From NCBI GenBank assembly GCA_964016885.1, contig OZ024743.1, positions 268,336,001 to 268,400,000 on the forward strand: a stretch of 64,000 nt of DNA, in the 5' to 3' direction. Positions 15,443 to 64,000 of the stretch are shown here, in pieces. Under the pieces are notes generated by a model, which worked only from the letters and a program-made list of their open reading frames with translations, had not been told where the DNA came from and searched no databases. Each line of letters opens with the position of its first letter. The stretch's first letter is position 1. Both the position numbers and the translations under genes were made by a program. Origin of the DNA: Eledone cirrhosa. Its lineage: Eukaryota.

Positions 15443-15491
<49 letters not shown>

Positions 15492-15564
15492 GACCGGAGC
15501 AAACAATTATCAAAAAATTCTTTAAATAAATTAAAAAACGATTTAAATATTCACCTGTTCTATT

Positions 15565-15644
15565 GCTGTTACCGACGGTTTCACTAATCAAAAGATTGGA
15601 AATCCAGAGAATTTCCAATGAAAAGAATTAGATCTTCAGACAGC
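15565..15644 (-). ncRNA. Type I hammerhead ribozyme (family A, inverted arm)
   Basis: Minus strand: gctgt CTGAAGA t-ctaat...attag-t GAAA ccgtcgg TA acagc. Confidence 0.75.
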
Positions 15645-16055
15645 TATTTCCATACCATAAGGGTGCAAAACCTCATAGTAAGTCAATATTTTGCTTACTG
15701 CCCGACGCATGCGGTCAAGCCGTTGAAGTGACGCACACGCAAAATTAGGCCACAAGTAAAAAACGGGTTATTATAAACTTGCTGATCATGCCGCTAAAAA
15801 TAGAACAGGTGAATATTTGAATCGTTTTTTAATTTATTGAAAGAATTGTTTGATAATTACTTGCTCCCCTCATTTTTATAGATGTTGTATCGCGCTGCTT
15901 TTTCTAGCGGCTTGATCAGGAAGTTTATAATAACCCGCTTTTACTTGTGGCCTAATTTTGCGTGTTCGTCACTTCAACGGCTTGACCGCATGCGTTGGGC
16001 AGTAAGCGAAATATTGACTTACTATGAGGTTTTGCACCCTTATGGTATGGAAATA

Positions 16056-16135
16056 GCTGTCTGAAGATCTAATTCTTTCCATTGGAAATTCTCTGGATTT
16101 CTAATCCTTTGATTAGTGAAACCGTCGGTAACAGC
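16056..16135 (+). ncRNA. Type I hammerhead ribozyme with extended stem II (family A)
   Basis: Stem I gctgt/acagc; CTGAAGA; stem II ctaat..attggaaat-loop-atttctaat..attag; GAAA; stem III ccg-t-cgg; GUA cleavage triplet (cut after 16130). Confidence 0.8.
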
Positions 16136-16313
16136 AATAGAACAGGTGAATATTTAAATATTTTTTTAATTTATTTAAAGAATTGTTTGATAATTGCTTG
16201 CTCCGCTCATTTTTATAGTTCTGGTATCTCAAATTAGTACCATCGAACCACAACTATTATAAACACCATGCATATTTCTGTAGGTACCTAGTGCTTGTTG
16301 GAATATCCATACC

Positions 16314-16387
<74 letters not shown>

Positions 16388-16389
<2 letters not shown>

Positions 16390-16703
16390 AAAATGTATGA
16401 CCCTGACGGCAGAGCTCAAGCATTTCGTGGCCTATTTTTGGACTAAATTACAATTTTTATCGTGGTAAATAAATATCCGAACTTTTCAAGGGAAAATTCC
16501 TTATATGGGAAGATTGTAGTTGTCAAGAGTATTGGTCAATATTTATTTACCACGCTAAAAATTCTAATTTAGTCCAGAAATAGCCGTCGAAACGGCTTGA
16601 GCTCTGCCATCGGGGTCATACATTTGTTCTATTACCCACTCTCTAAGTATTGAGTACTCTGGTGCGTTATGATTCATCTGGTTCCTTACCACAACACCTT
16701 CGT

Positions 16704-16705
<2 letters not shown>
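16388..16705 (+). mobile_element. Family B fold-back element; decayed complete HHR on the minus arm (~16400-16493), 3' half-HHR on the plus arm
   Basis: Inverted arms; 3' terminus ggttccttaccac...ccttcgtta(TA)n shared with 26718, 35075 and 48435-50390. Confidence 0.8.
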
Positions 16706-23474: not shown

Positions 23475-23482
<8 letters not shown>

Positions 23483-23862
23483 TAAGAGGAATTCCAACTT
23501 TGTCTGATTTACTCGTTTTATTTACAATCCTTTAAAATTTATAATGGTATTATAATGAAATAGTATGATAGAATATTAAATTCTAAGTGTTAATTAAACA
23601 AGTACTTTCATGCTTTCGCAATCTTCAGGTTCATAATATGTGGTGACAGTCAAGTTTGCAATTTTCAGTTGAAAATTGCAAACTTGACTGTCACCACATA
23701 TTATGAACCTGAAGATTGCGAAAGCATGAAAGTACTTGTTTAATTAACACTTAGAATTTAATATTCTATCATACTATTTCATTATAATACCATTATAAAT
23801 TTTAAAGGATTGTAAATAAAACGAGTAAATCAGACAAAGTTGGAATTCCTCTTATTAATATA
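23475..23862. repeat. Perfect palindrome (193-bp arms, 2-nt loop) abutting (TA)n
   Basis: Centre ttttca-gt-tgaaaa at 23662-23675; the arms match base for base as read. Confidence 0.95.
23704..23742 (+). ncRNA. Minimal type I hammerhead variant (mirror copy at 23595-23633, minus)
   Basis: tgaac CTGAAGA t-tgc-gaaa-gca-t GAAA gtac TT gttta; palindromic stem III AGTACT. Confidence 0.65.
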
Positions 23863-26717: not shown

Positions 26718-26889
26718 GAGCTCAAGCCGTTTCGACGGCTAATTCTGGACTTAGTCCAGAATTAGCCGTCGAAACGGCTTGATCTCTGCCGTCGGAGTCA
26801 TACTTGTTCCTATTACACACTCTACTACCCTAAGTATTGAGTACTTTGGTGCGTTATGGTCCATCTGGTTCCTTACCACATTTCCTTCG

Positions 26890-26892
<3 letters not shown>
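26718..26892 (+). mobile_element. Short family B copy, truncated within the HHR and folded back
   Basis: Hairpin centred on ggact-t-agtcc (26747-26757); family B 3' terminus then (TA)n. A diverged family B-like terminus faces it at 26965-27080 (minus). Confidence 0.85.
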
Positions 26893-26967
<75 letters not shown>

Positions 26968-27075
26968 TAAGGATGTGGTAAGATACTAGGTTGAGCATAA
27001 CCCACCAGAGTGCTCGATACTTGGGGTAGTAGAGTGGGTAATGTGAAAAGATTCAGGACCTCAACGTCTGAATAT

Positions 27076-35074: not shown

Positions 35075-35275
35075 TAACGAAGGAAGTGTGGTAAGGAACC
35101 AGATGGACCATAACGCACCAGTGTACTCAATACTTAGGGTAGTAGAGTTGGCAATAGGAAAATGTTCAAGACTCCGATGGCAGAGTTCAAGGCCTTTCTA
35201 CGACTATTTCTGGACTAGTCCAGAAATACTTGTCGAAAACGGCTTTAGCTCTGCCGTCGGGGCCTTGTACATTTT

Positions 35276-35280
<5 letters not shown>
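35075..35280 (-). mobile_element. Short family B fold-back copy
   Basis: Family B 3' terminus at left; palindrome centre tctggact|agtccaga at 35216/35217. Confidence 0.85.
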
Positions 35281-47863: not shown

Positions 47864-48052
47864 TGGTGGATTGGCAGTATCGGTAGAGGGTCGGATGCCA
47901 TGCTTTGACGTATAGAGTTACGGCCCTTGCCATTCTGAGTTCAAATCCCGCCGAGGTTAACTTTTCCTTTCATCCTTACGGGGTCGATAAAATAAAGTTC
48001 AGTAATGCTCTGGGTAATTGGTGGCCTTGTGCCAAAAGTAGAAACAATTATT
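47864..48052 (+). mobile_element. Full-length SINE copy
   Basis: Closely matches 7294-7484. Confidence 0.9.
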
Positions 48053-48448
48053 TTAATTGCTGGAACCCATTGTCACTGTTCTTGGGGGGATTGCGTTTGT
48101 GTACATGTGTCCTTATATACAAGAGTATTCTTTATTGAGAACATATACACACTCACACTTTCACACCCAAACAAATGTATTCATATAGAGGGTGGGCCAG
48201 AATTCACGACTCATTTGATTATTTATAGATCTGCTAACACAAAATGTTATAAAACAAGTTAAGTTATATAATAAAAATATAAATTAAGAAACCTGGTAAG
48301 CATATTAAGAAATAAAATGATAAATTAAAACTATACAATGACAATAAAATAAGCATGCTAAGAAATATAACTAACAAGCGAGTCATGAATTGTGTTGTTA
48401 TTTCTGTTTACCTTTTATATATATATATATATATAGGAAAATGTATGA

Positions 48449-48543
48449 CCTCGACGGCGGAGCTCAAGCCGTTTCGACGGTTATTTCTGGACTAAATTAG
48501 AATTTGTTAGCTTGGTGAATAAATAGCCGAACTTTTCAAGGGG
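48449..48543 (-). ncRNA. Type I hammerhead, U3-A8 variant (family B, left arm)
   Basis: Minus strand: cccc TTGAAAA gttcggctattt...aaataaccgtc GAAA cggc-ttgagctcc-gccg TC gagg. Confidence 0.7.
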
Positions 48544-50201
48544 GTTCTTCCTTATATGGGAAGATTGTAGTTGTCAAGAGGATTGGTTAAAATTTGTTGT
48601 AAACACAAATAAGTCTATCATGGTGGGAATTAGGGATGGCTGAAGTTGCATGTAGAACAATAGGGGAGTGAGTGGAGCGGTCAAGCGTTGAAAGTGATAT
48701 GTATACATCAGATTCTAAGGATAGTGTATGAAGTGGGGGAGGGAGGTTATAGAATAGGTAAATCGAAAGAGAGTAGGAGTCAATAAAAGATACTAGAAAG
48801 AAATTAAAAAATATACATATATATATAAAATTAGATAGTGAAAAATGAATAAAGAAATCACAATGCTATCTTACAATTACAGGTTAATAAGTTGAGAATA
48901 GAAAAAACTTATAGAAATTACAAAACAGATACAAACTTAAAGGGGTTTTTAACACATCTGCTATAAGTAGTTAGTAAAGCGTATTCGGCCAATTCTATCT
49001 TAAAATAACAGGGGTGGGGGAACTGATGCTACAAGGCCCAATGGGCGGCATCGGGGTAGGCGAAATGGGAAAGCAGACGAGGAAGAAAATAGGGGGTGGA
49101 AGGAAGTGATAGGATGAGACAGGGGGAAGAAGGAGACAAAGAGGAAAAGAAAAGAGATATTTTTACCTATGTAAACTGGGGTTTCCCTTAACTTATTCGG
49201 CAAGTGTGTGTGTGTATGGAGGCGGGGGGTATCAGCCCTTGTCTACCCACCCGGGTCGTTATAGGGTTTGGGGGCGAGGTAAGTCCTACGCAATATGTGT
49301 TTGCATGCGGTTACCAGTTCATCTTTCTTGTTTAGGAGTTGGTCCTTCGAAAACAGCATTTGTAATGTTTCCTCCGAGCATAAGCTACACGGAGGAAACA
49401 TTACAAATGCTGTTTTCGAAGGACCAACTCCTAAACAAGAAAGAAGAACTGGTAACAGCATGCAAACACAGATTGCGTAGGACTTACCTCGCGGTCAAAC
49501 CCTATAACGACCCGGGTGGGTATACAAGGGCTGATACCCCCCCCCACACACACACACACACTTGCCGAATAAGTTAGGGGAAACCCCAGCTTACATAGGT
49601 AAATGTATCTCTTTTCTTTTCTTCTTTGTCCTCTTCTTCCCCCTGTCTCATCCTATCACTTCCTTCCACCCCCTATTTTCTTCCTCGTCTGATTTCCCCT
49701 TTCGCCTACCCAATGCAGCCCATCGGGCCTTGTAGCATCAGTTCCCCCACCGCTGTTCTTTTAATATAGAATTGGCCGAATACGTTTTACTAACTACTTA
49801 TAGCAGATGTGTTAAAAATCCCTTTAAGTTTGTATCTGTTTTGTAATTTCTATAGTTTTTTCTATTCTCAACACATTAACCTGTAATTGTAAGATAGCAT
49901 TGTGATTTCTTTATTCATTTCTAACTATCTAATTTTTTTTTTTTTAATTTCTATCTAGTATCTTTTATTGTCTCCTACTCTCTTTCGATTTACCTATTCT
50001 ATAACCTCCCTCCCCCATTTCATACACTATACTTAGTGTATCACTTTCAACGCTTGACCGCTCCACTCACTCCCCTATTGTTCTACAGGCAAGTTCAGCC
50101 ACCCCTACTTCCCACCAAATGCCATGATAGACTTATTTGTGTTTGCATCAAATGTTAACCAATCCTCTTGACAAGTACAAGCTTCCCATATAAGGAAGTA
50201 C

Positions 50202-50295
50202 CCCCTTGAAAAGTTCGGCTATTTATTCGCCAGGCTAAAAATTATAATATATTCCAGAAACAGCCGTCGAAACAGCTTGAGCTCTGCCGTCGGGG
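50202..50295 (+). ncRNA. Type I hammerhead, U3-A8 variant (family B, right arm)
   Basis: cccc TTGAAAA gttcggct...agccgtc GAAA cagc-ttgagctct-gccg TC gggg; GUC triplet (cut after 50291). Confidence 0.75.
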
Positions 50296-50387
50296 TCATA
50301 CTTTTTCCTATTTCCCACTCTACTACCCTAAGTATTGAGTACTCTGGTGCGTTATGGTCCATTTGGTTCCTTACCACACTTCCTTTG

Positions 50388-50424
<37 letters not shown>

Positions 50425-50428
<4 letters not shown>

Positions 50429-51960
50429 TGAAAAATAGAGCGAGAAAGGGTACTGTCCATCATCAGTGATCTTTTGACTATCATCGGTATTTCTTCGCAT
50501 TAAAGACCAGAAACCTCAAAATCAGTGCGAGCAATAACTTAAATAAGTTATTGAGACAGAGCGAATTGGGTGGAGAAAGAGGGACAGTAAACTAACAAAA
50601 ATATTAATGCAACGTAAAGAGAGGAAATGAGAGACAGGTCAATGATACATTTGAACTTAAGTTCGAACAAATCAACGACTGGAAGACGGCAGACGAGTCC
50701 GAGCCCTGCGAAATGTGAGCGAGAAAAGGATTTCACACTGGTCAGACGGGATGAAGTGAGAGAGGGGGAGCAGCAGAGAGTGAGTGAGTGAAAGTGTGAG
50801 GAAGAGGCCAGCCGAGAGAGTGTGTGACCAGCAGAGGGGGGTGAATGAAAGCAAGAGGTACAATGAGAGAGAAGGGGGAGAGAGAAAGAGGATAGCAGTA
50901 AGGTGATAGAAAAAGATAAACCACCGCGAAGGAAAAAATTATATATGAATGAAAAAATGGCGTGCTGCGTTGTTGCGACTGTGATACATATAAATGAAAT
51001 TTTGTTTGTTTACTGTCCCTCTTTCTCCACCCAATTCGCTCTGTCCCAATAACTTATTTTAGTTATTGCTCGCACTGAATTTGTGTTATCTGGTCTTTAA
51101 TGCGAAGAAATACCGATGATAGTCAGAAGATCACTGATGATGGACAGTCCCCTTTCTCGCTCTACTTTTCATTCATATGTATCACACTCACAACAACGCA
51201 GCACGCCATTTATATATATATATACCAACCAGAGGCATATGATCTTTAAAGCGATGAAATACCAATGAAGGCTGGAAGATCACTGATGAAGGACTAATTT
51301 TATTCATATGTAACCCATTTGCAACCATACAGCACGCCATTTTTTAAATATATTTATATATTTTCCTCCGCTGTGACCCGTCTGTTTCTTTCTTACTGCT
51401 TCCTCTTTTTCCGTATCTCTCACTTCCTTTTACCCCCACTGCCAGTCACTCTCTCTGTTAGCCACTTCCTCACACTTTCACTCACTCACTCTCTGCTACT
51501 CCCTCTCCTACTTCCTGACGTTTGAGCTATGCGAAATTCTTTCCTCACTCGCATTTCGACCAGGTCGGATGGTTTTTATTCTATCTTGTCTACGATTTCA
51601 CAGAACTTATGTTCATCGATTTCAGAGACTTGACTCCTTCTTCATCCCGTTTGACCTGTGCGAAATTCTTTCCTCACTCGCATTTCGACCAGGTTGGATG
51701 GTCTTTATTCTCTCTCGTCTACGATTTCACAGAACTTATGTTCATCGATTTCAGGGACTTGACTCCTTCTTCCTCACTTTTCGTTGCATTACCATCTTTG
51801 TTTGTTTACTGTCTCGCTCGTTCCCCCTATTTACCTGTCCCAACGACTTTCTTCAACCGTTGCTCGCACCGACCAGAGGTATATGGTCTTTAAAGCGATG
51901 AAATACCAATGAAGGCTGGAAGATCACTGATGAAGGACTAAATTTATTCATATATAACCA
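50425..51960. mobile_element. Family G cluster: a fold-back copy (50425-51212) and a partial-tandem copy (51225-51960)
   Basis: 50425-50620 is inverted at ~50995-51178; 51226-51310 is repeated at 51872-51952; internal ~129-bp tandem duplication at ~51520-51775. Confidence 0.8.
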
Positions 51961-54957: not shown

Positions 54958-55398
54958 TAGAAAATGAGGTGAAATCGAAAATGCAACTGGAGTCTTTTTT
55001 AAAATATTTATTGGGATCCTTTACCGGTTTCGCAGTTCTTATCCTTTTCAAATGTAGAATTCAGATGGAGGGCTTGTGGTTTTTCTCACATATATATATA
55101 TATATATATATATGTGTGGGGTGGGTGTGTGCGTGTTAGTTATGTGTGTTATACATTTACAGGGGGCGCTCCGTTCGAAGCACTCAATGCTGTTAGGGGG
55201 ATGCTCTTGTGTTGGTTGTATTCTTGTTATCCCTATTTCAATTGGGGGTAACCACAGTAAGTATTGTACTCAATACATAGCAGAGTATAAATATTTAATA
55301 TAGAAATGGCTTCTACAGGACTAGATCTGTTTCATTCGGGAGAAATCATCTGCAAGCCTATATTAAATATTAAATATATATAAATATATACATATATA

Positions 55399-55963
55399 TA
55401 TGAATGTATGTATAGAATATTTGGCAATATACCGTATGTTTAATTAAAAACATTTTGAAAACCTTACGCTATCATTTTTAAAGTAGTGACTATGTCACTT
55501 AGTTCTTTTTTCGGCAAAGGAAGGGGGAGAAGCTGACAGATTCTATTTGACACTGTTGGTGATCCTCAGAGCAATTGCCGGTCCAGCAAAAATTAAAAAT
55601 TAGGATTGGTGTTCTGAAATAGGGATGTATACATGAATGTTTGTATAGTATATTTGGCAACATACCGTATTTTTAATCGCTCTGTATAATCAGTTCCTGA
55701 TTATTACTGGAATTCTATAAGAATCCAGCCTCTATAATTTTCGGCAGAGGCAGGAGAACGTTGCTCTGAGGAACAACAATAGTGTGAAACAGAATCTGTC
55801 AGGTTCTCTCCCTTCCTTTGCCGAAAAAAGAAGTAAGTGACATAGTCACTACTTCCAAAATGATACCGTAAGGTCTTCAAAATGTTTTAAAATAAAAATA
55901 CGGTATATTGCCAAATATACTATACATACATTCATGTATACATCGCCATTTCAGAGCACCAAT

Positions 55964-56954: not shown

Positions 56955-57500
56955 TACCACCTCTACCACCACCAACCCATGTACCTCTACCACCTCTAAC
57001 ACCACCAGCTCAACAACCACTAACCCCAGTACCACCACCTCTACCACCACCAGCTCAACAACCACCAACCCATGTACCACCACCTCTACCAACACCAGCT
57101 CAACAGCCACCAAACCCGGTACCACCACCTCTATCACCACCAACGCAACAACCACTAACCCCAGTACCACCACCTCTACCACCACATCCACCACCACCAG
57201 CTCAACAACCACTAGCCCCAATACCACCACCAGCTCAACAACCACTAACCCCGGTACCACCAGCTATACCACCACCAGCTCAACAACCACCAATCCCGGT
57301 ACCACCACCTCTACCACCACCAGCTCAACAACCACTAACCCCGGTACCACCACCTATACCACCACCACTTCAACAACCACCAACCCCGGTATCACCACCT
57401 CTACCACCACCAGCTCAACAACCACTAACTCCAGTACCACCACCTTTCCACCACCTATACACCACCAGCTCAACAACCATCAACCCCGGTATCACCACCA
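56955..57500. repeat. 45-bp ACC-rich minisatellite
   Basis: cagctcaaca at 57006, 57051 and 57096, continuing with some irregular units. Confidence 0.85.
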
Positions 57501-57634
57501 CTAACTTCATACATATTACTAAGAACAATATCATCCCTACCGCCAACATCACCACCTTAAAAACCATCATCATCGTCCTGACAACGACCACCTCCACAAC
57601 AAGCATTACTATTGCTACACAGGAACCAATACTA

Positions 57635-60600
57635 AAAACATCCCCACCACCATCGCCTACAATACCAACACCAACACCATCACATTCAACACCAGAAACA
57701 TCCCCACCACCATCCCTACAATACCAACACCAACACCATCACATTCAACACCAGAAACATCCCCACCACCATCGCCTACTGTACCAACACCAACACCATC
57801 ACATTCAACACCAGAAACATCCCCACCACCATCCCTACTGTACCAACAACAACACCATCACATTCAACACCAGAAACATCCCCACCACCATCGCCTACTG
57901 TACCAACACCAACACCATCACATTCAACACCAGAAACATCCCCACCACCATCGTCTACTGTACCAACACCAACACCATCACATTCAACACCAGAAACATC
58001 CCCACCACCATCCCTACAATACCAACACCAACACCATCACATTCAACACCAGAAACATCCCCACCACCATCGTCTACTGTACCAACACCAACAGCATCAC
58101 ATTCAACACCAGAAACATCCCCACCACCATCCCTACTGTACCAACACCAACACCATCACATTCAACACCAGAAACATCCCCACCACCATCGCCGACTGTA
58201 CCAACACCAACACCATCACATTCAACACCAGAAACATCCCCACCACCATCCCTACAATACCAACACCAACACCATCACATTCAACACCAGAAACATCCCC
58301 ACCACCATCGCCTACAATACCAACACCAACACCATCACATTCAACACCAGAAACATCCCCACCACCATCGCCAAATGTACCAACACCAACACCATCACAT
58401 TCAACACCAGAAACATCCCCACCACCATCGCCTACAATACCAAACCCAACACCATCACATTCATCACCAGAAACATCCCCACCACCATCGCCTACTGTAC
58501 CAACACCAACACCATCACATTCAACACCAGAAACATCCCCACCACCATCGCCTACTGTACCAACACCAACACCATCACATTCAACACCAGAAACATCCCC
58601 ACCACCATCCCTACTGTACCAACACCAACACCATCACATTCAACACCAGAAACATCCCCACCACCATCGCCTACTGTACCAACACCAACACCATCACATT
58701 CAACACCAGAAACATCCCCACCACCATCCCTACAATACCAACACCAACACCATCACATTCAACACCAGAAACATCCCCACCACCATCGCCTACAATACCA
58801 ACACCAACACCATCACATTCAACACCAGAAACATCCCCACCACCATCGCCTACTGTACCAACACCAACACCATCACATTCAACACCAGAAACATCCCCAC
58901 CACCATCCCTACAATACCAACACCAACACCATCACATTCAACACCAGAAACATCCCCACCACCATCCCTACAATACCAACACCAACACCATCACATTCAA
59001 CACCAGAAACATCCCCACCACCATCACCTACTGTACCAACACCAACACCATCACATTCAACACCAGAAACATCCCCACCACCATCGCCTACAATACCAAA
59101 CCCAACACCATCACATTCATCACCAGAAACATCCCCACCACCATCGCCTACTGTACCAACACCAACACCATCACATTCAACACCAGAAACATCCCCACCA
59201 CCATCCCCTACAATACCAAACCCAACACCATCACATTCAACACCAGAAACATCCCCACCACCATCCCTACAATACCAACCCCAACACCATCACATTCAGC
59301 ACCAGAAACATCCCCACCACCATCCCTACTGTACCAACACCAACACCATCACATTCAACACCAGAAACATCCCCACCACCATCCCCTACAATACCAAACC
59401 CAACACCATCACATTCAACACCAGAAACATCCCCACCACCATCCCTACAATACCAACCCCAACACCATCACATTCAACACCAGAAACATCCCCACCACCA
59501 TCCCTACTGTACCAACACCAACACCATCACATTCAACACCAGAAACATCCCCACCACCATCCCCTACAATACCAAACCCAACACCATCACATTCAACACC
59601 AGAAACATCCCCACCACCATCCCTACAATACCAACCCCAACACCATCACATTCAACACCAGAAACATCCCCACCACCATCCCTACTGTACCAACACCAAC
59701 ACCATCACATTCAACACCAGAAACATCCCCACCACCATCGCCTACAATACCAACACCAACACCATCACATTCAACACCAGTAACATCCCCACCACCATCC
59801 CTACTGTACCAACACCAACACCATCACAGTCAACAGCAGTAGCATCCCCACCACCATCGCCTACAATACCAAACCCAACACCATCACATTCATCACCAGA
59901 AACATCCCCACCACCATCGCCTACTGTACCAACACCAACACCATCACATTCATCACCAGTAGCATCCCCACCACCATCGCCTACAATACCAACACCAACA
60001 CCATCACATTCAACACCAGTAACATCCCCACCACCATCCCTACAATACCAACACCAGCACCATCACATTCAACACCAGAAACATCCCCACCACCATCCCT
60101 ACAATACCAACACCAACACCATCACATTCAACACCAGTAACATCCCCACCATCATCCCTACTGTACCAACACCAACACCATCACATTCAACACCAGAAAC
60201 ATCCCCACCACCATCGCCTACAATACCAAACCCAACACCATCACATTCAACACCAGAAACATCCCCACCACCATCGCCTACAATACCAAACCCAACACTA
60301 TCACATTCAACACCAGAAACATCGCCACCACCATCCCTACTGTACCAACACCAACACCATCACATTCAACACCAGAAACATCCCCACCACCACCCCCTAC
60401 AATACCAACACCAACACCATCACATTCATCACCAGAAACATCCCCACCACCATCGCCTACTGTACCAACACCAACACCATCACATTCAACACCAGAAACA
60501 TCCCCACCACCATCGCCTACTGTACCAACACCAACACCATCACATTCAACACCAGAAACATCCCCACCACCATCGTCTACTGTACCAACACCAACACCAT

Positions 60601-63600
60601 CACATTCAACACCAGAAACATCCCCACCACCATCCCTACAATACCAACACCAACACCATCACATTCAACACCAGAAACATCCCCACCACCATCACCTACT
60701 GTACCAACACCAACACCATCACATTCAACACCAGAAACATCCCCACCACCATCCCTACAATACCAACACCAACACCATCACATTCAACACCAGAAACATC
60801 CCCACCACCATCACCTACTGTACCAACACCAACACCATCACATTCAACACCAGAAACATCCCCACCACCATCGCCTACTGTACCAACACCAACACCATCA
60901 CATTCAACACCAGAAACATCCCCACCACCATCGCCTACTGTACCAACACCAACACCATCACATTCAACACCAGAAACATCCCCACCACCATCACCTACTG
61001 TACCAACACCAACACCATCACATTCAACACCAGAAACATCCCCACCACCATCCCTACTGTACCAACACCAACACCATCACATTCAACACCAGAAACATCC
61101 CCACCACCATCGCCTACAATACCAACACCAACACCATCACATTCAACACCAGAAACATCCCCACCACCATCCCTACTGTACCAACACCAACACCATCACA
61201 TTCAACACCAGAAACATCCCCACCACCATCCCTACTGTACCAACACTTACACCATCACATTCAACACCAGAAACATCCCCACCACCATCGCCTACAATAC
61301 CAACACCAACACCATCACATTCAACACCAGAAACATCCCCACCACCATCCCTACTGTACCAACACCAACACCATCACATTCAACACCAGAAACATCCCCA
61401 CCACCATCCCTACTGTACCAACACCAACACCATCACATTCAACACCAGAAACATCCCACCACCATCGCCTACTGTACCAACACCATCACATTCAACACCA
61501 GAAACATCCCCACCACCATCGCCTACTGTACCAACAGCAACACCATCACATTCAACACCAGAAACATCCCCACCACCATCGCCTACAATACCAACACCAA
61601 CACCATCACATTCAACACCAGAAACATCCCCACCACCATCGCCTACTGTACCAACACCAACACCATCACATTCAACACCAGAAACATCCCCACCACCATC
61701 CCTACAATACCAACACCAACACCATCACATTCAACACCAGAAACATCCCCACCACCATCGCCTACTGTACCAACACCAACACCATCACATTCAACACCAG
61801 AAACATCCCCACCACCATCGCCTACAATACCAACACCAACACCATCACATTCAACACCAGAAACATCCCCACCACCATCGCCTACTGTACCAACACCAAC
61901 ACCATCACATTCAACACCAGAAACATCCCCACCACCATCCCTACAATACCAACACCAACACCATCACATTCATCACCAGAAACATCCCCACCACCATCGC
62001 CTACAATACCAACCCCAACACCATCACATTCAACACCAGAAACATCCCCACCACCATCCCTACAATACCAAACCCAACACCATCACATTCATCACCAGAA
62101 ACATCCCCACCACCACCCCCTACAATACCAATACCAACACCATCACATTCAACACCAGAAACATCCCCACCACCATCCCCTACAATACCAAACCCAACAC
62201 CATCACATTCAACACCAGAAACATCCCCACCACCACCCCCTACAATACCAACACCAACACCATCACATTCAACACCAGAAACATCCCCACCACCATCGCC
62301 TACTGTACCAACACCAACACCATCACATTCAACACCAGAAACATCCCCACCACCATCGCCTACTGTACCAACACCAACACCATCACATTCAACACCAGAA
62401 ACATCCCCACCACCATCGCCTACTGTACCAATACCAACACCATCACATTCAACACCAGAAACATCCCCACCACCACCCCCTACAATACCAACACCAACAC
62501 CATCACATTCAACACCAGAAACATCCCCACCACCACCCCCTACAATACCAACACCAACACCATCACATTCAACACCAGAAACATCCCCACCACCATCGCC
62601 TACTGTACCAACACCAACACCATCACATTCAACAGCAGAAACATCCCCACCACCATCGCCTACTGTACCAAACCCAACACCATCACATTCATCACCAGAA
62701 ACATCCCCACCACCATCGCCTACTGTACCAACAACAACACCATCACATTCAACACCAGAAACATCCCACCACCATCGCCTACTGTACCAACACCAACACC
62801 ATCACATTGATCACCAGAAACATCCCCACCACCATCGCCTACTGTACCAAACCCAACACCATCACATTCAACACCAGAAACATCCCCACCACCATCGCCT
62901 ACTGTACCAAACCCAACACCATCACATTCAACACCAGAAACATCCCACGACCATCGCCTACAATACCAACACCAACACCATCACATTCAACACCAGAAAC
63001 ATCCCCACCACCATCACCTACTGTACCAACACCAACACCATCACATTCAACACCAGAAACATCCCCACCACCATCCCCTACAATACCAAACCCAACACCA
63101 TCACATTCAACACCAGAAACATCCCCACCACCATCGCCTACTGTACCAACACCAACACCATCACATTCAACACCAGAAACATCCCCACCACCATCCCTAC
63201 AATACCAAACCCAACACCATCACATTCATCACCAGAAACATCCCCACCACCATCGCCTACTGTACCAACACCAACACCATCACATTCAACACTAGAAACA
63301 TCCCCACCACCATCACCTACTGTACCAACACCAACACCATCACATTCAACACCAGAAACATCCCCACCACCATCCCTACAATACCAAACCCAACACCATC
63401 ACATTCAACACCAGAAACATCCCCACCACCATCCCTACTGTACCAACACCAACACCATCACATTCAACACCAGAAACATCCCCACCACCATCCCTACTGT
63501 ACCAACACCAACACCATCACATTCAACACCAGAAACATCCCCACCACCATCCCTACTGTACCAACACCAACACCATCACATTCAACACCAGAAACATACC

Positions 63601-64000
63601 CACCACCATCCCTACTGTACCAACACCAACACCATCACATTCAACACCAGAAACATCCCCACCACCATCCCTACTGTACCAACACCAACACCATCACATT
63701 CAACACCAGAAACATCCCCACCACCATCCCTACTGTACCAACACCAACACCATCACATTCAACACCAGAAACATCCCCACCATCATCCCTACTGTACCAA
63801 CACCAACACCATCACATTCAACACCAGAAACATCCCCACCACCATCCCTACTGTTCCAACACCAACACCATCACATTCAACACCAGAAACATCCCCACCA
63901 CCATCCCGTACAATACCAAACCCAACACCATCACATTCAACACCAGAAACATCCCCACCACCATCCCTACAATACCAAACCCAACACCATCACATTCAAC
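57635..64000. repeat. 58/60-bp tandem satellite, >6.3 kb, continuing past the window end
   Basis: Unit aaacatccccaccaccatc(gc)cctac(aa|tg)taccaacaccaacaccatcacattcaacaccag; about 105-110 copies. Confidence 0.97.

Follow-up and report, generated by a model that had tools for sequence, protein, structure and literature searches.

The stretch of DNA analysed here, hereafter the window, comprises 64,000 nucleotides of the Eledone cirrhosa genome (GCA_964016885.1, contig OZ024743.1, forward-strand positions 268,336,001 to 268,400,000) and contains a large hairpin adjoined at both ends by (TA)n (Table 1). As the earlier note had described, inverted arms of about 940 bp enclose a 13-nt loop; alignment of 48433-49376 with 49390-50311 yields 858 matches, 57 mismatches, and 9 gaps (36 columns), and the innermost 55 bp are free of mismatches. 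Transversions outnumber transitions among the mismatches (32 to 25), a preponderance rightly noticed before, yet unremarkable. Only the right arm continues past its hammerhead, into a tail of 78 nt. The C-terminal peptide previously read at the centre is encoded by the left arm as CSLCSEETLQMLFSKDQLLNKKDELVTACKH, followed by the stop codon; the right arm has lost both the CxxC and the stop. The TCCG and CGGA that bracket the loop form a 4-nt inverted repeat that the element carries naturally, shared by 38 of 47 other copies (loci L031-L070), and served as microhomology at the junction.

Each arm terminates, as anticipated, in a UUGAAAA hammerhead, laid out in both as CCCCC-UUGAAAA-G...GAAA-stem III-GUC, and the predicted cut on the right falls exactly where it had been placed. 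The right-arm hammerhead combines a long stem II with a 5-bp stem III capped by a palindromic loop (GAGCUC). Both hammerheads are decayed, the left through mismatches in stems I and II and the right through an A·C in stem III, and would be poor substrates for cleavage assays; the region 50190-50310, put forward earlier for such an assay, is one of these decayed copies.

Table 1. Features of the hairpin and its flanks, in window coordinates; plus-signed numbers count nucleotides past the predicted hammerhead cut.
Feature	Position	Strand	Remarks
Hairpin, one insertion in (TA)n	48433-50389		two head-to-head 5′-truncated Hydra-clade PLE copies
(TA)n target, left flank	48416-48435		basis: sequence
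Left arm, 5′-truncated Hydra PLE copy	48433-49393	-	3′ end +20; without tail
Type I hammerhead, left arm	48433-48553	-	core UUGAAAA; U3 at 48539; predicted cut between 48453 and 48452
RT-GIY-YIG ORF end	49243-49389	-	last 48 codons and stop (CxxC..E..LLN..E..CKH)
Head-to-head junction	49373-49393		TCCG, 13-nt loop, CGGA
Right arm, 5′-truncated Hydra PLE copy	49390-50389	+	3′ end +98; with tail
Endonuclease C-terminal fragment	49392-49523	+	family's stop codon mutated
Type I hammerhead, right arm	50192-50311	+	U3 50206; A8 50211; predicted cut after 50291
78-nt tail	50312-50389	+	5′ UTR start of next unit
(TA)n target, right flank	50389-50426		basis: sequence

Other repeats populate the window. 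Fold-backs of other repeat families lie beside (TA)n at 15483-16217, 23475-23862, 50418-51182, and 55392-55943, the first two of which, on visual inspection, seem to contain minimal hammerhead cores of the CUGAAGA type; a SINE-like repeat at 47865-48051 has several copies within the window; and the region 57000-64000, with its strong C/A skew (GC skew about -0.85), is probably a simple tandem array. Another four short copies or fold-backs from the hairpin's own family group occupy 16385-16704, 26720-26891, 26973-27071, and 35076-35280, two of them with clear +20/+98 pairs.

By its protein motifs, the parent element is a Hydra-clade Penelope-like element (PLE) with a C-terminal GIY-YIG endonuclease; homologues and motifs bear out the PLE origin proposed earlier and narrow it to this clade. 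In the genome (3.0 Gb in 1,796 contigs), a query consisting of the right hammerhead and tail returned 2,245 first-look candidates, 40 of which were scored, and many copies extend into the ORF with the same C-terminal peptide end. Longer natural copies carry RWR, DKT (SDKT), YRDD, CNCPDRSTC, VIY..YIG, and CNLC..E..N..CKH. The Hydra clade is defined by such protein motifs together with a (TA)n target (PMC8557442). A single ORF, with the reverse transcriptase followed by a C-terminal GIY-YIG domain, emerges from open stretches in L054, L043, and L062 that cover the N-terminus, YRDD, and VIY..YIG. For the clade's RWK and DKG-to-DKT signatures, L054 and L043 have RWR and SDKT, RWR being a conservative variant that homologues possess too. 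The clade motif appears as CNCPDRSTC and VIYQCNVRTDTSNKAYIG, the CxCX5C linker motif is present, VIY..YIG lacks an internal CxxC in the natural longer copies, and CxxC and CxH surround the conserved E and N (CNLC..EE..LLN..E..CKH). (AT)n follows nearly all +20 and +98 ends. Three near-full copies have a unit length of 3,038-3,125 nt, slightly more than the clade's soft limit of generally under 3 kb. Locus L043 displays the textbook form, in which (TA)n encloses a tailless inverted truncated copy followed by a near-full copy that bears the tail. Protein homologues number 935 at E≤0.001, the best of them 37-55% identical and one of these named as from Apostichopus japonicus, a Hydra host; Pfam gave nothing above cut-off for four fragments. 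A non-LTR retrozyme, that is, non-coding head-to-tail tandems each with a hammerhead (as defined in the accessible part of bioRxiv 10.64898/2026.07.22.740005), is ruled out by the inverted arms with their ORF remnants.

The family group is abundant: 12 of 80 randomly sampled 10-kb stretches, placed at round coordinates, contain 14 of its insertions by our own count, which extrapolates very roughly to 52,000 genome-wide (95% range 29,000-88,000, all subfamilies). As far as our searches reach in the literature, this is a previously unlisted Hydra family; in the parts of the PMC8557442 supplement searched, three family-specific motifs are absent, and a fourth matched once, in an unrelated Chlamys sequence. 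The genome also harbours a second, younger Hydra family (L152-L181), with 95-100% amino-acid identity among 150 scored of 57,919 first-look candidates. Its 3′ UTR leads into a long TA/TG stretch resembling a microsatellite, which copies seem to have partly in common, and the part of this UTR inspected by eye revealed no hammerhead.

Much of what the hairpin displays is already known. The C-terminal EN+ PLEs of the Hydra clade (Craig et al., 2021, PMC8557442), such as Penelope-13_HM and Hydra-1_Obim, share with the window family the diagnostic motifs, the (TA)n target, the 3′ hammerhead, the inverted 5′-truncated copy, and the one-end tail. Penelope-13_HM has a 966-nt inverted 5′-truncated copy with a hammerhead on each strand, PLE tails often occur at one end only, and an octopus Hydra family has a canonical core (PMC8557442). 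The Hydra hammerhead rows available from File S2 of that study are all C3-G8 with short loops II, whereas in the window family U3-A8 occurs together with a stem III of 5 bp, roughly 56 nt in the stem II region, and a tail of 78 nt. Nor does the hammerhead of this family match that of Hydra-1_Obim. The Cercyon PLE hammerheads of Schistosoma mansoni (Cervera and De la Pena, 2014, PMC4209133), with approximately 1,300 hits, have the same U3-A8 core, paired opposite-strand hammerheads some 100-700 bp apart, and a palindromic loop 3, but they are minimal motifs without helix III and belong to another PLE family. Hammerheads in PLE repeats (PMC4209133) and natural U3-A8 covariation (PMC3088659) are thus on record, with further background in PMC3884650 and PMC6155905. 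The connection of the fold-back/hammerhead/(TA)n pattern to PLEs that the earlier note drew from this locus is therefore true but had been published (PMC4209133; PMC8557442), and the U3-A8 variant, inverted truncated copies, one-end tails, and (TA)n targeting are likewise established.

Across the family, 3′ ends fall at two fixed points: of the 155 segments that extend as far as the hammerhead region, 79 stop at +98 and 59 at +20/21, most of the remainder being tail variants clipped by alignment. The 70 head-to-head pairs, which were not selected by a tail query, divide into 53 mixed, 6 tail/tail, 1 short/short, and 10 unclassified, such that one +20 end accompanies one +98 end in 53 of the 60 classified pairs on which the test was computed (p=4e-10). 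The preponderance persists when the sister-family loci, found with a query that contained the +20 end, are left out (36/41 mixed, p=4e-7). Arms of a pair also share ancestry. Private variants are common to both at 0.015 per site in 19 pairs, as opposed to 0.004 in 4,781 cross-locus pairs, and paired arms nearly always have subfamily words in common, which indicates that both derive from one source; the shared variants fit one RNA, two RNAs of one locus, or later gene conversion equally well. Junctions overlap by 1-20 nt in 30 of 54 cases. From the cut site to the next ATG, 191-192 nt intervene in all four tandem copies checked. One locus with arms of two subfamilies (L222), considered as proof of two templates, was rejected because its junction is nested. 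The tail contains a GTATTGAGYAC-like word (window 50330-50345), also encountered close to the 3′ end in Hydra-2_Amil and, in looser form, in Hydra-1_Amil (sequences from File S7 of the PMC8557442 supplement) as well as in the second Hydra family, and possibly a protein-binding site.

That the hairpin is merely two independent insertions, or a mirror created during assembly, is scarcely credible. The high copy number would suit such an origin, as would the lack of a public contig across the junction among the contigs of four runs from one study, but contigs of a repeat are short and the missing bridge is accordingly uninformative. The arms, moreover, differ by 57 substitutions and 9 gaps and only one carries a tail, their 4-nt overlap at the junction is devoid of (TA)n, and they share 19 private variants in 897 sites, above the 95th percentile of cross-locus pairs. 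With dozens of similar structures elsewhere in the genome, the earlier dismissal of an assembly mirror holds.

Instead, the hairpin is a single, now dead insertion of two 5′-truncated, head-to-head Hydra-clade PLE copies in (TA)n, probably generated by twin target-primed reverse transcription. That the arms stop at two different fixed points is likely because both DNA strands primed copying. We infer that the RT-GIY-YIG protein would nick both strands of (TA)n, each of which would then prime on the element RNA beyond the hammerhead cut, one at +20 and the second at +98; the two cDNAs would end early, here some 930 nt upstream, their 3′ ends would anneal (CGGA with TCCG), and repair would complete the insert. 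Since the two starts are located 3′ of the cut and the copies cross the site intact, the template would be an uncut multimeric or re-ligated circular RNA. In the twin priming of L1, the second strand primes and the two cDNAs join by microhomology into an inversion, the inverted part of which does not overlap the 3′ part. The arms of the window hairpin, in contrast, start near the same end and overlap.

The nearest biochemical parallel concerns the Poseidon PLE of Anolis, PAc, which in vitro nicks and extends both strands of an AT-rich target, using an uncut RNA template, from two internal starts that bound the tail (Frangieh et al., 2024, PMC11167929). PAc belongs to another clade, and its starts lie within the ORF (111-118 nt into it, as opposed to the 5′ UTR here) and much closer together; published PLE tails, in the papers compared, measure 30-40 nt against 78 nt in this family. 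The available portion of PMC11167929 contains no count of one-of-each pairing in inverted insertions. A literature search over titles and the beginnings of abstracts, with subscription papers, Repbase, and Dfam outside its scope, returned nothing on twin priming in PLEs, on C3·A8 subfamilies, or on the window family. Work by Luense et al. from 2017 may describe C·A or U·G PLE variants.

Twin priming does not account for everything, as 7 of the 60 classified pairs break the one-of-each rule and the nearly symmetric junction in the window (17 nt apart) fits a local snap-back step as well. Self-priming has been raised before (PMC3846280, which also discusses head-to-head junctions, and PMC8557442), and would here involve a +98-primed cDNA that folds on itself and copies back to +20, an endonuclease resolving the intermediate. 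We regard such an origin as improbable, even though a near-symmetric junction with a 13-nt loop at a natural 4-nt inverted repeat, the palindromic junctions of many minis, and the private variants common to both arms would all agree with it. The loop in the window is part of the +20 arm, so a fold-back copy would be unable to reach +98. Neither arm is consistently nested in the other: in 9 pairs it is the +20 arm that reaches further 5′ by over 50 nt, in 10 the +98 arm, and in L066 and L068 the two arms do not overlap at all, which means that neither can be a copy of the other. These relations, together with the one-of-each ends, favour twin priming over simple snap-back, which is largely refuted as the sole route and may contribute as a fill-in step.

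Truncation frequently occurs very early. Of 20 arms sampled in the random stretches, 13 begin 34-48 nt upstream of the cut, within the region of stem II; the result, in several subfamilies, is fold-back minis about 190 bp long whose junctions vary. A sister mini family with a compact stem II (L182-L211, L269-L288) has the same +20/+98 ends; two search patterns found no copy of it with an upstream hammerhead core, and its apparent G3/C3-C8 core was rejected as fold-back junctions. In L127 (9310-9586) and L194, where both arms break off around -40, an internal ORF piece bridges or adjoins them, suggestive of a template jump.

Of 98 aligned copies from the subfamily represented in the window, 96 retain U3 and 96 retain A8, with N7 variable (A58/C32/T5), so U3-A8 is inherited rather than a product of decay; most subfamily variation maps to predicted loops. 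A type I hammerhead is recovered by constrained folds and column tallies: the core is surrounded by three stems, and G10.1-C11.1, GAAA, and an NUH cut site are in place. Rfam has no hammerhead match in either arm, and when the window copies are folded without constraint, no hammerhead emerges. Forcing it costs 9.4-9.5 kcal/mol in these copies, 2.6 and 1.1 kcal/mol in two better-kept ones, and 10.1 kcal/mol in an old U·G copy. The U3-A8 hammerhead is likely a real, if weakly constrained, ribozyme of the parent element.

Positions 3 and 8 form a Watson-Crick pair (U-A) in this subfamily and are C·A or U·G in its sisters. An exact-pattern count over the genome found 2,351 cores, of which 492 are C3·A8 (93 of the first 100 listed reading CUGAGAA), 27 have G8 (21 U3·G8 and 6 C3-G8), and, by subtraction, about 1,830 are U3-A8. 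A core tree of 70 of 115 usable copies, namely all non-U-A rows and 23 of the 68 U-A rows, places 12 of 15 U·G rows in a separate, longer-branched clade (support 100/100), and 24 of 26 C·A rows in a 30-row clade (95/99) that encloses all six C-G rows as scattered point changes. The 3-8 pair is therefore not kept Watson-Crick in all mobile lineages. The simplest reading of this tree, which is midpoint-rooted but otherwise unrooted and whose bootstrap has not settled, would be an order of U·G, then U-A, then C·A. The earlier view of U3-A8 as compensatory survives in part: the pair is fixed in the subfamily and is a known natural covariant, but sister subfamilies amplified with C3·A8 and U3·G8.

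It is doubtful that the U3-A8 hammerhead is efficient, that its 3-8 pair is under strict selection, and that cleavage is needed for transposition. Such constraint would explain the constancy of U3 and A8 beside a variable N7, the confinement of most variation to predicted loops, and the two better-kept copies that fold into the hammerhead within 1-3 kcal/mol of the minimum, and natural U3-A8 hammerheads have been reported, covariants of this kind having proved active in vitro (PMC3088659). It sits poorly with a C3·A8 clade amplified to at least several hundred copies, with an older U3·G8 clade, and with six C3-G8 copies that are only scattered point changes; hammerhead mutations, furthermore, had no effect on PAc insertion in vitro (PMC11167929). 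The C3·A8 and U3·G8 subfamilies find no mention in the available part of PMC4209133.

Taken alone, the hairpin is ordinary PLE debris. What goes beyond prior knowledge would be the family-level counts of arm ends, nesting, and core states, and the news is modest: arms end at two different fixed points, and related subfamilies spread with a mismatched ribozyme core. Descriptor searches requiring CUGANGA would miss the entire group. The family data are useful because how inverted structures and tails form, and whether hammerhead cutting is needed, are open questions (PMC8557442; PMC11167929); both become testable in a family that offers two sharp ends, three natural 3-8 states, and insertions in the tens of thousands. 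A broader reading, which we advance tentatively and at somewhat less than even confidence, is that inverted insertions record strand-specific twin priming, one strand starting invariably at +20 and its partner at +98; that a reverse transcriptase stop about 40 nt before the cut floods the genome with fold-back minis of approximately 190 bp; and that the core walked through U3·G8, U3-A8, and C3·A8 while mobile, so that catalysis would be dispensable in vivo, or C3·A8 would work via protein or in a shifted register (CUGA-GA-A, without N7). If true, the family group would represent a natural experiment on two open questions of PLE biology.
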